From Gammaproteobacteria bacterium (GTDB lineage: Bacteria > Pseudomonadota > Gammaproteobacteria > Magnimaribacterales > TMED112), in NCBI GenBank assembly GCA_038147295.1, contig JAYQTH010000002.1, positions 586,243 to 650,242 on the forward strand: 64,000 nt of DNA. Reading direction: 5' to 3'. A program made the position numbers and the translations under genes. Under the pieces are notes generated by a model that was not told where the DNA came from, made no database searches, and saw nothing but the letters and a program-made list of their open reading frames with translations. Shown piece after piece: positions 18,521 through 54,133 of this stretch. Numbering within the stretch: position 1 is the stretch's first letter; every line of letters begins with the position of its first letter.

Positions 18521-18529
18521 TGTGGATAA
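18521..18529 (-). promoter_or_regulatory. DnaA box in the nrdA/serA divergent promoter region
   Basis: Perfect TGTGGATAA (reverse complement of TTATCCACA). Confidence 0.75.
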
Positions 18530-18608
18530 ACATTGGATAAATTGGGTACTTTTTTTTAATTTTTATTTCCAAAAAAGCTTAAAATCTGTATTATCAAAAG
18601 CTTTCCAC

Positions 18609-19796
18609 ATGAAAGTAAAAATTCTTAATAACATTGCAAAGACAGGTTTAGATATTCTTGAAAAAGAAGGTTTTTCCCTGCATCAGAATGACGATTTGGA
18701 TGGTTGCAGTGGTATTGTGCTGAGGAGTCAAAATTTAACTCAAGAAAAACTACCCGAATCAATTTTTGGTATAGCCCGAGCAGGAGCAGGAACTAACAAC
18801 ATTAATGTAGAGGATTGCTCACAAAATGGCGTCGTTGTTTTTAATACCCCAGGAGCAAATGCAAACGCTGTAAAAGAAATGGTTCTGTGTTCTTTGATTC
18901 TAGGTAAAAGAGATCTTGTTTCAGGCAATAAATCAATTGATGCCATCGATATAGACAACATGGATGATGAAGCAGTTATGAAAGAAATAGAGGGCATGAA
19001 GAAAAAATATGTTGGGAATGAAATTAAAAATAAAAACCTTACTGTAATTGGGCTTGGTGCGATTGGTTCTTTGGTGGCAGAGCATGCAATACAGTTGGGG
19101 ATGAATGTAACAGGTTATGATCCTGGATTGACAGTAGAGACAGCACTGAGATTGCCAAGTTCCATCAGAATGGCAAAATCTCTCGAAGATTCTTTTAAGG
19201 ATGCAGAATACATTTCCTTACATATACCTCTTGTTCCAGATACTAAGGATATTATTAATAGTAAGCTGATAGCCAAACTGAACAATTGTGTGCTGATTAA
19301 TTTCTCAAGAGGTGGAATTGTTTGTGAAGAAAGTTTGCTTGAAGGATTAGATCAGAAGTTTTTGTACAAATATGTTACTGACTTCCCTACAAAGAAATTA
19401 ATCAATAGAGTTAGATCAAAAAAAGATGTTGTAATCTTTCCCCACTTAGGAGCAAGCACAACAGAAAGTGAAATTAACTGTGCAGAAATGGCATGCTCAC
19501 AGCTTGCTGATTTTTTAAAGAAAGGAAAAATAGTTAACAGTGTAAACTTTCCTAATATATCGTCTGAAAAAGTAAGCAAACACAGAATATATTTTTCAAA
19601 CATGAATGAACCTGGAATTATTAGCAAAGTGGCAGATGTGCTTGCTCAAGAAAATATAAATATTGATGAATTTGTTAACAAAAGCCGCAACAATCTAGCA
19701 AGCAATATTATTGATTCAGATGATGACATAACACCTCAAATTCTTGATAAGCTAATGAAAATAAAGGGTGTAACAAATGCAAGACTTTGCTATTAA
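18609..19796 (+). CDS. serA: D-3-phosphoglycerate dehydrogenase with C-terminal ACT domain
   Basis: IARAGAGTNNI, VFNTPGANANAVKE, VIGLGAIG, INFSRG and PHLGASTTE; ATG at 18609. Confidence 0.9.
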   Translation: MKVKILNNIAKTGLDILEKEGFSLHQNDDLDGCSGIVLRSQNLTQEKLPESIFGIARAGAGTNNINVEDCSQNGVVVFNTPGANANAVKEMVLCSLILGKRDLVSGNKSIDAIDIDNMDDEAVMKEIEGMKKKYVGNEIKNKNLTVIGLGAIGSLVAEHAIQLGMNVTGYDPGLTVETALRLPSSIRMAKSLEDSFKDAEYISLHIPLVPDTKDIINSKLIAKLNNCVLINFSRGGIVCEESLLEGLDQKFLYKYVTDFPTKKLINRVRSKKDVVIFPHLGASTTESEINCAEMACSQLADFLKKGKIVNSVNFPNISSEKVSKHRIYFSNMNEPGIISKVADVLAQENINIDEFVNKSRNNLASNIIDSDDDITPQILDKLMKIKGVTNARLCY

Positions 19797-20005
19797 AAAA
19801 ACAGACTTTTTTTTAGTAAAAAACCTTGCTTTTCACACAGACCACTAAAATTAATTTGTTCAGCTGAGTTGCAAACTTTTTTTTTGGAGAATTTAACCTT
19901 CATCCACTGAAACTCGCTCTATTAAAGTGTTTGAAGTTGTTGTTCATTTTTTAACCAATTCATTGAGAATGTTTATGTTTGCGGCATTTGATAAATTTTT
20001 TATAT

Positions 20006-20040
20006 TTTTCCCCAAAGTTATCCACAGTTTCTGTGGATAA
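20006..20040. promoter_or_regulatory. Cluster of three DnaA boxes (DARS-core-like geometry)
   Basis: TTTTCCCCA (20006-20014), 3 bp, TTATCCACA (20018-20026), 5 bp, TGTGGATAA (20032-20040). Confidence 0.75.
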
Positions 20041-20076
20041 AAAAATATGTTATTTTTTTAAATTATTTTAGAGCCT

Positions 20077-20724
20077 ATGAATTGGGATGAGCTAATAGAA
20101 TCAGAAACAAAAAAAGATTATTTTAAGGCAATAAAAAAAGTAATCTTGAGCGATAGTCGAAGTGGTAAATCAATTTTCCCATATCCAAAAAATTATTTCA
20201 GAGCCCTTGATTTTTGCTCTTTCGAAGATTTAAAAGTTGTGATATTGGGACAAGATCCATACCACACTTCAGGTGTTGCCGATGGTCTTGCTTTTTCATC
20301 TGGTATTTACACCTATATGCCTCCATCTTTAAGAAATATTTTTTTGGAAATTGAAGATGATGTAGGCATAAAAAACCAAAACGTATCATTGGAGGGCTGG
20401 GCAAAGCAAGGTGTACTTTTACTTAATTCATATTTATCAGTACAAGAGGGTCAACCACTATCTCACGCAAAAATAGGTTGGGAGATTTTTACAAACAGGG
20501 TTTTGATTGAGGCAAGCAGAAAGTGCAATGTTGTCTTTATGCTATGGGGCAACTATGCACGTTCAAAAAAAGATATCATTGAAGGTCAGAATTTAATTTT
20601 AGAGGCTGCTCACCCATCACCTCTTTCAGCTCATAAAGGATTTTTTGGGTGCAAGCATTTTTCAAAAGCAAATGCATATCTTGGCCGCCATGGCATTAAA
20701 CAGATTGACTGGCAATTAGCTTAG
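20077..20724 (+). CDS. ung: Uracil-DNA glycosylase (family 1)
   Basis: VVILGQDPYH, PPSLRNIF, QGVLLLN and AAHPSPLSA. Confidence 0.97.
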   Translation: MNWDELIESETKKDYFKAIKKVILSDSRSGKSIFPYPKNYFRALDFCSFEDLKVVILGQDPYHTSGVADGLAFSSGIYTYMPPSLRNIFLEIEDDVGIKNQNVSLEGWAKQGVLLLNSYLSVQEGQPLSHAKIGWEIFTNRVLIEASRKCNVVFMLWGNYARSKKDIIEGQNLILEAAHPSPLSAHKGFFGCKHFSKANAYLGRHGIKQIDWQLA

Positions 20725-21424
20725 ATTTAAATAATTTATCGGGATGTTCAAAGTTCTTAAAGATATATTGTCCATAAAGTATATTGTCTATCTCAATTTC
20801 AAAAACCTCTTTGCCAATCTTTAGCAATTCATTCTTTTCATCTGCCGTAAGATCTTTGAAGATAGCCAAGGTATTTTTGTTCGACCCTAAGTATTTTAGC
20901 CTTGCAATTATTTCCTGCCCTCTGTAGCACCCTTTGGTGAATGAAACATATTTTTCCAAATTGTATCCAAATTCATTAGGTCTATTTTTTAAAGACATAG
21001 CATTACTAATATCTACATCGAAGTGTAAGAGTTTAAGAAGATCCCAATTTTTATTACTATTGTTGGAAGCTCTTGGCATAGCAGTGGTTTTTGTAAAACC
21101 AACGCCATCATAAATTCCTGAAATAATTTTTTCTTTGATTCCGATTTCACACTTATAGAACTGCGCATATTTTTCAAGCTCCCTCTTTAGAATTTCTGCA
21201 ACATCAGCCTTGATAATAAGTTCTAAAGTTTCACTGATTATTGCTGTTGCATTAGTAATAACAAAACCTTTCTCATCACAGAAAAGCACATCTTTGTTCT
21301 GTGTTTTCTCTGAAATATCACCTGATGCTTGACCCTGGATAAATTCTAAAGACCTCTTGCCTGTAATTTCCAAGGTACAATAATTATTTAAAGTAAAATA
21401 ACTTATGTCTAAATTGCTGCTCAT
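20696..21424 (-). CDS. ygfZ: YgfZ/GcvT-like folate-binding Fe-S cluster repair protein
   Basis: LEITG...EFIQGQ and VSFTKGCYRGQEIIAR signature; ATG at 21424. Confidence 0.88.
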   Translation of the reverse strand: MSSNLDISYFTLNNYCTLEITGKRSLEFIQGQASGDISEKTQNKDVLFCDEKGFVITNATAIISETLELIIKADVAEILKRELEKYAQFYKCEIGIKEKIISGIYDGVGFTKTTAMPRASNNSNKNWDLLKLLHFDVDISNAMSLKNRPNEFGYNLEKYVSFTKGCYRGQEIIARLKYLGSNKNTLAIFKDLTADEKNELLKIGKEVFEIEIDNILYGQYIFKNFEHPDKLFKSKLIASQSV

Positions 21425-39917: not shown

Positions 39918-40514
39918 TTAAAATGATGCTCCGACAGTAAAAAATAGCCCGTCTTCATCTTCTAACCCTGATGCACCATCGGCCGTAAATGAGCTATAAC
40001 CCAAAGACGCGTCATACTCACCTAAAGAAAATCCGTAACCTACTAAAAAGTTTGATCCTGTGTCTTCGTAATCTCCATAAGAAAATGAGAAATCACCAAA
40101 ACCATATGATATGTCATAGTAGTCTCCAAACTCATCGCCAAGGTAGTACGAGAAACCCACACCGGCATATGACAATGCAACGTAGATTTCTGAAAAGTCG
40201 GCATCTGTTACTTCAGGGTAAGCATAATTGATGTAACCAACATCCCATCCAAGACCACCATCGGTTTCACCCGCGTAGCCGAGATAGGTATCAAGTTCTA
40301 GACCTGCACCACCAAAAGCAACATTAGAACCCCAAGTACCAGCATAAAAGCCACCTTCAGAGCTATAATCAAATCCACCACTGTATGCGGGAGCATCCAT
40401 TGTTTGGGACATCCCACGCCAGAAGTAATTTGATGAAAATGAAAAGTTCGAGGACACACCTGCAAACACATTCAACGTTAGAAATATGGCTAAAGCCATC
40501 ATTCCTTTTTTCAT
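39918..40514 (-). CDS. TorF-family putative porin (TIGR02001-like)
   Basis: Signal peptide, SNYFWRGMSQT...PA.SGGFDY, FYAGTWGSNV, ELD.Y.GY and terminal Phe. Confidence 0.85.
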   Translation of the reverse strand: MKKGMMALAIFLTLNVFAGVSSNFSFSSNYFWRGMSQTMDAPAYSGGFDYSSEGGFYAGTWGSNVAFGGAGLELDTYLGYAGETDGGLGWDVGYINYAYPEVTDADFSEIYVALSYAGVGFSYYLGDEFGDYYDISYGFGDFSFSYGDYEDTGSNFLVGYGFSLGEYDASLGYSSFTADGASGLEDEDGLFFTVGASF

Positions 40515-40553: not shown

Positions 40554-40586
40554 GAAAAAGGGCTAAACCTTCATAGTTTAGTAGCC
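40554..40586 (-). terminator. Intrinsic terminator-like hairpin directly 3' of the riboswitch
   Basis: Minus strand GGCTACTAAAC-TATGAAG-GTTTAGCC followed by CTTTTT. Confidence 0.6.
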
Positions 40587-40636
40587 GCGTTCCTTCAGCT
40601 TTCGCTTACTTCCGTCCTCGAAGAGGATGAACGATT
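40586..40636 (-). ncRNA. Glutamine-I (glnA motif) riboswitch aptamer
   Basis: Minus strand AUCGUUCA-UCCUCUUCGAGGA-CGGAAGUA-AGCGAAAGCU-GAAGGAACGCG gives P1 CGUUC/GAACG, P2, P3 with a GNRA loop and E-loop strands; upstream of porin-amt. Confidence 0.85.
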
Positions 40637-49869: not shown

Positions 49870-49897
49870 TATTCGCATAATATATATTATGTTAAAT
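49870..49897 (+). other. dif chromosome dimer resolution site (XerC/XerD)
   Basis: TATTCGCATAA-TATATA-TTATGTTAAAT. The XerD arm is identical to E. coli dif and the XerC arm ends CGCATAA; it lies in the largest intergenic gap. Confidence 0.92.
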
Positions 49898-52879: not shown

Positions 52880-54133
52880 CTAGAAGTTTTTGATCAGAAG
52901 TTCACCAAATTTTGAGCAGCTTACTTCTTCAGCATCATCAATGAGTCTAGCAAAATCATAGGTTACTGTTTTGTCTTGAATGGTTTTTTCCATTCCTAGA
53001 ATGATTAAATCTGCTGCCTCGACCCAACCCATATGCCTTAGCATCATTTCAGCTGAAAGGATTAGAGAGCCTGGATTTACCCTATCTTGGCCTGCATATT
53101 TAGGTGCTGTACCATGTGTTGCCTCAAATACAGCAGTTTCATCACCTAGGTTTGCTCCTGGTGCTATGCCTATGCCTCCTACTTGAGCAGCTAATGCATC
53201 TGATAGGTAGTCTCCATTGAGGTTAGGTGTTGCTAAAACATTATATTCAGCAGGCCTTAGAAGGCATTGCTGTAAGAAAGCATCACAAATTACATCGTTA
53301 ACTATTATTTCTTTGCCAGTATTTGGATTTTTGAACATCATCCATGGGCCGCCATCAATTTCTACTCCGCCAAACTCTTCAGCAGCCAGCTCATAACCCC
53401 AGTCTCTGAAGGCGCCCTCAGTAAATTTTTGGATATTTCCTTTGTGTATTAAAGATACAGAGTCTCTATTGTTCTGTACTGCATATTCAAAAGCCTTTCT
53501 AATTAGGCGCTTACTACCCTCTTCCGATATTGGCTTAATACCTATTCCACAGCTCTCTGGAAACCTAATTTTCTCAACACCATATTGCTCTTGAAGGACC
53601 TTAATTAATGACTTTGCTTCTTCTGTGTCTGCTTTAAATTCAACACCTGCATAAATGTCTTCAGAGTTTTCTCTAAAAATCACCATATCTACTAGTTCAG
53701 GCTTTCTTACTGGACTTGGAGTGCCATCAAAATACCTCACTGGTCTTTGACACACATAAAGATCAAGTTGTTGGCGTATGGCAACGTTTAAGGATCTTAT
53801 GCCACCACCAACGGGTGTTGTGAGCGGCCCTTTGATAGACAGAATGTACTCTCTGCAAGCGTCTAATGTTTCTTGTGGAAGCCATTCATTGTCGCCATAT
53901 ACCTCAACGGATTTTTCTCCACAAAATATTTCCATCCAACTTATAGCTTTTTTGCCGCCATAAGCTTTATCCACAGCTGCATCAACAACTTTTTTCATTA
54001 CAGGTGTAATATCAACACCAATACCATCGCCCTCGATGAATGGAATAATAGGATTATCAGGGATATTTAACTTACCATTTTTGTAAGATATTTTTTCACC
54101 CTTCGCTGGAACTTTAATTTTTGATGTACCCAT
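52880..54133 (-). CDS. icd: Dimeric isocitrate dehydrogenase (E. coli Icd type)
   Basis: [37 protein letters not shown] and [13 protein letters not shown]; ATG at 54133. Confidence 0.96.

Follow-up and report, generated by a model that had tools for sequence, protein, structure and literature searches.

The genome of a SAR86 gammaproteobacterium, a member of one of the most abundant uncultured clades of marine heterotrophs with streamlined genomes, carries a conserved triad of DnaA boxes immediately upstream of ung, the gene for uracil-DNA glycosylase. The triad was found in a stretch of 64 kb of contiguous DNA, which was analyzed as a whole and is called the window below. It is arranged like the core of the DnaA-reactivating sequences (DARS) of E. 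coli, elements at which DnaA is recharged, and its sequence, its geometry and the purifying selection that acts on it are established by the comparisons that follow. We predict with high confidence that it is a selected DnaA-binding site. By analogy with E. coli, the triad may assemble three DnaA protomers with high affinity within the ung promoter or leader, where it would both recharge DnaA and gate ung, and we give this combined reading about an even chance.

The DnaA-Box Triad

The three boxes occupy 35 bp of the window. Box III, TTTTCCCCA (20006-20014, plus strand), is a weak box that runs in the same direction as box II, from which it is separated by a space of 3 bp, aag (20015-20017). 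Box II, TTATCCACA (20018-20026, plus strand), agrees perfectly with the consensus and is followed by a space of 5 bp, gtttc (20027-20031), and by box I (20032-20040, minus strand), which reads TGTGGATAA on the plus strand and TTATCCACA on the minus strand and stands head-to-head with box II. Boxes III, II and I have two, zero and zero mismatches to the consensus, respectively, boxes I and II being perfect 9-mers, while box III has two mismatches to TTATCCACA and one to the relaxed form TTWTNCACA. The original prediction had given the minus strand as TTATCCACA-5-TGTGGATAA-3-TGGGGAAAA, which matched exactly when 20006-20040 was re-read, and had described one box opposed to two, as is the case for box I on the minus strand against boxes II and III on the plus strand.

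With up to three mismatches allowed, the 35-bp pattern occurs once in the window and in none of 100 dinucleotide-preserving shuffles, so chance does not explain the triad. The ung loci of other taxa, about 575 kb in total, do not contain the pattern. As for DnaA boxes in general, the window contains 28 matches at zero to one mismatch, where 19.5 ± 4.6 are expected. Two weak box-like sequences, TTTCACACA (19831-19839) and TCATCCACT (19900-19908), were considered as additional boxes and excluded, because neither is conserved as a box in distant lineages. A lone perfect DnaA box is also present in the coding sequence of icd (53967-53975, plus strand), where it has no partner box and probably occurs by chance.

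The ung Locus and Its Upstream Spacer

The gene downstream of the triad (20077-20724, plus strand) matches the NCBIfam models NF003589 and TIGR00628 above cut-off (equivalog), which confirms the prediction that the boxes lie upstream of ung, and its start codon is located 36 bp past box I. The upstream neighbor is a serA-like 2-hydroxyacid dehydrogenase gene on the plus strand, which starts at about 18609 and ends at 19796. NCBIfam further named nrdA and nrdB upstream, both on the minus strand, and ygfZ, sdhE, rpoE and degP downstream. Genes for DnaA and Hda are absent from the window. The intergenic spacer (19797-20076) is 280 bp in length and has a G+C content of 27.5%, against 37% in the window. 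It had been described as an unusually long AT-rich spacer, and it is indeed AT-rich and long, the median intergenic gap being 9 bp, but it is not unique, as it ranks ninth by length among the 49 spacers of the window. An Rfam search of the spacer at gathering and E-value thresholds gave no match, and no meaningful small ORFs were found in it.

The distance from the end of box I to the ung start codon is 14 bp in locus L144, 15 bp in L129, 27 bp in L003 and L167, 29 bp in L159, 36 bp in the window and 50 bp in L009. A promoter would not fit into the 14-50 bp between the boxes and the gene, so the triad lies within the ung promoter or 5' leader.

Conservation in the spacer extends beyond the boxes. 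Block A, TTTTTRAYCAAT plus the next bases (19947-19979, plus strand, with TTTTTRAYCAAT itself at 19947-19959), is located about 50 bp upstream of box III in a fixed register, and block B, ACTGAAACT in the window and ACTGATTT in other lineages (19900-19919, plus strand), is located about 100 bp upstream of the triad. Altogether, about 130 bp upstream of the triad are conserved in register across eight lineages, with 6-12 columns per 85 reaching an identity of at least 7/8, while a background of random offsets gave 1.8 ± 1.4 columns per 85. Block A could be the ung promoter, since a -35 element TTAACC (19951-19956) and a -10 element TATGTT (19974-19979) separated by 17 bp can be recognized by eye, and transcription would then start about 20 bp upstream of box III. 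The scan for sigma-70 promoters and terminators made no call inside the spacer, block A included, at the threshold used. Block A could also be a weak IHF-like site, as it matches the IHF consensus with one to three mismatches; the match shifts its register in some lineages, and it was dropped as evidence for being weak and inconsistent between lineages.

Downstream, ygfZ (20696-21421, minus strand) is convergent with ung, and the 3' ends of the two genes overlap by 29 bp. A 2026 paper associates E. coli YgfZ with replication initiation and with the binding of IHF at datA and DARS2 (PMC13036160), and the position of ygfZ next to ung may be a coincidence. Elsewhere in the window, a glutamine riboswitch aptamer (Rfam RF01739, 67 bits, E = 1e-12) was identified at 40584-40635 on the minus strand, upstream of a minus-strand ORF (39918-40514).

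Conservation of the Triad in SAR86

The assignment of the window to SAR86 agrees with its Ung protein, whose closest relatives among species-representative genomes, with 90% and 84% identity, are encoded by MAGs of the SAR86 cluster; more distant ones, at about 50%, come from SAR86 single-cell genomes. The same protein is also encoded on many marine metagenome contigs. One of the metagenomic contigs, taylor_4__contig_3568_pilon (ENA ERZ28548097; L218) with a length of 1,059,223 bp, carries the exact locus, with ung at 585,396-586,043.

Six SAR86 loci were retrieved via Ung without regard to the motif (L001, L002, L003, L009, L010 and L031), and the triad is present at the same place in all six. 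Four further SAR86-like ung loci with the triad were obtained from the metagenome scan (L129, L144, L159 and L167), so that the comparison comprises 11 sequences including the window. L001 and L002 are its close relatives (Ung 90% and 84% identical), and the Ung proteins of the other eight relatives are 45-52% identical to that of the window. Boxes I and II are unchanged in all 11 sequences, while box III occurs as TTTTCCCCA, TTATCCAAA, TTATCCATA or TTATCCCAA, always at the same position. The two spaces are fixed in length across the SAR86 lineages and vary in their letters, the 3-bp space reading aag, act or gag and the 5-bp space gtttc, gaata, gattc or gaaat. Within the species of the window, zero to three SNPs were found in the spacer and none in the triad. 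The gene upstream differs by lineage, being either serA-like (plus strand) or an OYE-family oxidoreductase gene (minus strand), while the triad, together with its conserved blocks, remains linked to ung throughout. The original prediction had proposed conservation of the spacing across the clade as a check, and the outcome was positive, as the 5-bp and 3-bp spaces and the boxes are kept in eight lineages at this level of Ung identity although the letters of the spaces differ.

Comparison with DARS1 and DARS2 of E. coli

In E. coli MG1655 (NC_000913.3), the DARS1 core reads TTATCCACT-attcc-TGTGGATAA-cca-TGTGTATTA and is located in the bioD-uvrB spacer, about 385 bp upstream of uvrB, and the DARS2 core reads TTATTCACC-ttttc-TGTGGATAG-agt-TGTGAAGAA and is located in the rppH-mutH spacer, about 493 bp upstream of mutH. 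As the original prediction had stated, box I runs against the other two boxes in both cores, uvrB and mutH lie downstream, and the spacing of 5 and 3 bp given for DARS1 is correct in the MG1655 sequence. Sugiyama et al. (PMC6868365) likewise gave a I-II space of 5 bp; they described the spaces as strongly conserved across DARS1, DARS2 and predicted candidates, and they showed that ADP leaves the DnaA protomers bound to boxes I and II but not the one bound to box III. When the triad of the window was aligned with the two cores, as had been suggested, the geometry of both boxes and spaces was identical. In total, the boxes of the window triad have two mismatches, those of DARS1 three and those of DARS2 five. 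A second and weaker triad with 5-bp and 3-bp spaces, TTATCCCAG-ctttc-TGTGGATAA-cat-GGTGTAAGA (L082, 952-986), lies 177 bp upstream of mutH within the DARS2 region, and it coincides with the third DARS2 ChIP peak of a published study (PMC11317965).

Similar to DARS1, the SAR86 triad consists of three boxes with box I opposed and with spaces of 5 and 3 bp, and in both elements box II is perfect and box III degenerate. Both are also situated in the promoter region of a DNA-repair gene: the promoter region of uvrB is repressed by DnaA (PMC6015884), and the DARS1 core is located inside it. Moreover, DARS1 works without Fis, a feature that would fit a slow-growing organism such as SAR86. Unlike DARS1, the SAR86 site neighbors ung instead of uvrB, and ung lies on the box-I side at 36 bp (14-50 bp in relatives), whereas uvrB lies far off on the box-III side; the putative SAR86 element is in addition terminus-proximal and has no homology to DARS1 outside the boxes. 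With DARS2 it shares the core geometry and a long flanking region with elements at fixed distances. However, DARS2 requires defined IHF and Fis sites, whereas the SAR86 locus has only the weak IHF-like match, and the neighbor and the orientation differ as well, mutH lying on the box-III side. Box III also differs in that the SAR86 version keeps the 5' half TTATCC and loses the CACA half, while box III of the E. coli DARS elements keeps CACA. DARS1 and DARS2 occupy other positions on the E. coli chromosome than the terminus-proximal one of the SAR86 triad. Since ung is near and on the box-I side, while uvrB and mutH are far and on the box-III side, the triad is not an ortholog of DARS1 or DARS2, which is likewise ruled out by its serA-like (or OYE)-ung context and by the absence of similarity outside the boxes. 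The flanks of DARS1 and DARS2 are stimulatory (PMC4245941), and the in-register blocks beside the SAR86 triad recall them.

Double DnaA Boxes and the Opposed Box

At nearly all of its chromosomal targets, DnaA prefers direct pairs of boxes 2-3 bp apart, termed "double DnaA boxes" (Stringer et al. 2024, PMC11317965). The III-II pair of the triad is therefore generic, and at the sequence level the opposed box I is the only feature that discriminates a DARS core from an ordinary double box. When eight DnaA-bound regions of MG1655 were compared, DARS1 and DARS2 carried an opposed box at a distance of 5 bp from the double box (one to three mismatches), while no opposed box was found at that position in polA, purH, nrdA, datA, nrdD, oriC-R4 or mioC (five to eight mismatches). 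Thus, the triad resembles the operators of nrdA, polA, purH and nrdD in having a direct pair just upstream of a gene of nucleotide or DNA metabolism, and it is unlike them in having an opposed third box 5 bp away. The datA and oriC clusters also contain consensus boxes, a double box included, but they have more boxes in other layouts. In addition, datA has an IHF site, and oriC has a DUE and a skew switch, all of which are absent at the triad.

The window also possesses a double box of the ordinary kind, TTATCCAAT-gt-TTATCCACA (18521-18540, minus strand), between nrdA (start at about 18420, minus strand) and the serA-like gene. It has no opposed third box and follows the same design as the nrdA and nrdD operators of E. 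coli. The organism therefore uses E. coli-type boxes, and the pair suggests that ribonucleotide reductase may be controlled by DnaA in SAR86. The window itself thus allows an ordinary operator, the nrdAB double box, to be contrasted with the opposed-box arrangement of the triad.

Triads in Metagenomes

A metagenome scan for TTATCCACA-N5-TGTGGATAA, in which boxes I and II are perfect by design, retrieved at least 120 loci (L083-L202) with G+C contents of 26-73%. Among the matches listed, a third box (up to three mismatches) is present exactly 3 bp from one arm in 89 of 120 (74%), which indicates that the triad is a widespread module. Counted by flank, again among the matches listed, a third box occurs at 3 bp in 88 of 234 flanks, and each of the other spacings from 0 to 11 bp occurs only zero to five times. 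A hemN-like radical-SAM gene lies about 200 bp away at no fewer than 15 loci, with rpmE on the opposite side in at least three; at least nine triads are situated in a divergent xseA-exbB/tolQ spacer, at least seven neighbor priA and at least four neighbor SAR86 ung. Hence, among the matches listed, the triads usually stand beside genes of replication restart or repair, in parallel with DARS1 at uvrB and DARS2 at mutH. The placement at priA, xseA and rpmE could also reflect merely a common operator design.

Position Relative to the Terminus

A dif-like XerCD site, TATTCGCATAATATATATTATGTTAAAT (49870-49897, plus strand), is present in a gap of 688 bp before clpA. It agrees with E. coli dif at 24 of 28 positions, has a perfect XerD arm and differs at one position from the proteobacterial consensus used; a search of the window for E. 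coli dif with up to three mismatches gave no match, and the relaxed scan matched at four. The site is 29.8 kb from the triad, in line with the 30 kb originally stated, and at this distance the triad would be among the last DNA to be replicated. The GC skew of the window follows the gene strand and has no clear flip at the dif-like site, so the skew is unable to place the terminus within these 64 kb.

Alternative Explanations

The triad might be a plain DnaA operator on the ung promoter or leader, which would tune uracil repair to the replication cycle and have no meaningful role in nucleotide exchange. We regard this as a real possibility, though one that falls short of an even chance. It accords with the distance between box I and the ung ATG, which is 14-50 bp in every lineage, and with the III-II pair, a direct pair 3 bp apart and, in the window, 36 bp before the ung ATG; this is a generic double box of the kind present at nrdA, polA and purH (PMC11317965) and at nrdAB of the window. 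The DnaA regulon of E. coli includes genes for nucleotide synthesis, replication and repair (PMC11317965), and the metagenomic triads are often upstream of priA, xseA and rpmE, among the matches listed. The triad is also much nearer to its gene than DARS1 and DARS2 are to theirs, and on the opposite side. However, the opposed third box is missing from all non-DARS operators of E. coli that were checked, and because the 5-bp head-to-head geometry drives ADP release in E. coli, some exchange activity may accompany the geometry here. Furthermore, conservation in register over 130 bp upstream of the triad goes beyond what a simple operator needs.

The three remaining readings have far less in their favor. 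Perfect DnaA boxes and an AT-rich stretch in a long spacer could belong to a replication origin or to a part of oriC, but there are only three boxes, the GC skew stays positive through 20 kb and does not change sign at the triad, plus-strand genes stand on both sides, dnaA, dnaN and mnmG are not nearby, and the dif-like site is 29.8 kb away. Thus, neither a box cluster with a DUE nor a skew switch nor divergent genes were found at the triad, and no DnaA, DnaN or MnmG family was found among the 151 neighbors of the metagenomic triads (best 25 families listed). The original prediction, which had proposed the skew check and had considered oriC unlikely, was right on this point, and an origin is extremely improbable. 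The prediction had also offered a titrating locus as an alternative. Two perfect boxes should indeed give a high affinity for DnaA, but three boxes would titrate only a negligible amount of it. A site that inactivates DnaA by stimulating ATP hydrolysis would be expected to resemble datA, which has about five boxes and an essential IHF site in a different arrangement (PMC4585315). Neither about five boxes nor an IHF site between specific boxes was found at the triad, the datA double box has no opposed box, and block A matches the IHF consensus only weakly and not uniformly across lineages, so that a DnaA sink or inactivator of either kind is quite improbable. Finally, boxes II and I form a 9-bp inverted repeat with a 5-nt loop, as might be expected of an RNA hairpin or terminator or of a palindromic operator for another dimeric regulator. 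Against this, all 18 stem bases are invariant without compensatory changes while the loop varies, a third box, which is not palindromic, is kept at a distance of 3 bp, neither strand has a U-tract after the stem, the spacer has no Rfam match and does not fold better than shuffled sequences (z = -1.1), and the exact DnaA consensus recurs, among the matches listed, in organisms of 26-73% G+C. We therefore consider it very improbable that the triad is anything other than a DnaA site.

Proposed Function of the Triad

If the triad acts as a DARS-like site that also gates ung, two DnaA protomers would bind cooperatively and head-to-tail to the double box formed by boxes III and II, and a third would occupy box I, opposite box II. 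As at DARS1, the protomers on boxes I and II would touch head-to-head, and this contact would loosen their ADP; apo-DnaA would then leave and rebind ATP, and initiation-competent ATP-DnaA would be regenerated at the locus. Occupancy by DnaA at 14-50 bp from the ung start codon would at the same time gate the transcription of ung, most likely by repression, for which the DARS1 core in the DnaA-repressed uvrB promoter region (uvrB p3) provides a precedent in E. coli.

These steps differ in strength. An effect on ung transcription is probable because of the position of the triad. ADP release in the manner of DARS is plausible, with the chances about equally divided, because the geometry equals the head-to-head one of E. 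coli, where it is specific to DARS, and because the boxes here are stronger. DARS-like exchange would presuppose an ATP/ADP cycle of DnaA in the host (Hda/RIDA) and the head-to-head interface of DnaA (Gln208). Whether exchange at the triad would affect the timing of initiation in SAR86 is less certain. As judged from the sequence, the triad is no less likely to control ung through DnaA than to reactivate DnaA, and the two roles would be compatible.

Implications for SAR86 and Other Bacteria

Two later studies (PMC6868365, PMC6090056) credit the original DARS paper with the prediction of DARS-like sequences outside E. coli, and the latter mentions such sites at uvrB and mutH in Vibrio cholerae. 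DARS2 cores are also described as conserved in gammaproteobacteria related to E. coli (PMC4245941), and the same is said of DARS cores in this group with Vibrio included. The search of the literature on SAR86 and DnaA, or on DARS-like elements in other taxa, gave nothing specific. No paper found in it links SAR86 to a DARS-type element, which is consistent with the view that none had been described in this lineage. To our knowledge, the reactivation of DnaA by chromosomal DNA sites has been demonstrated experimentally only in E. coli. What the sequence adds at the SAR86 triad is ung as the putative partner gene, the opposite placement relative to the gene and the terminus-proximal location.

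More speculatively, the III-3-II-5-I triad may be an ancient DnaA-recharging module that has been reused across bacteria, at ung in SAR86 and at priA, xseA or rpmE elsewhere, with the SAR86 copy being single, independent of Fis and terminus-proximal, although we think this rather unlikely. If it were true, the triad would be duplicated, or cleared by the passing fork, just as replication finishes, and the completion of the chromosome would in this way be coupled to the renewal of ATP-DnaA and to the expression of ung in a streamlined and slow-growing organism. Because the boxes match the E. coli consensus, the SAR86 fragment can be used directly with E. coli DnaA and cells, and its deep conservation in SAR86 makes it a concrete and cheap test case for the generality of the DARS mechanism. 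The metagenomic triads suggest an architecture that is reusable across diverse bacteria, which would widen the search for replication-control loci. In SAR86, the triad also points to a possible control of uracil repair by DnaA, and this uncultured marine lineage may possess in it a switch for the control of replication.
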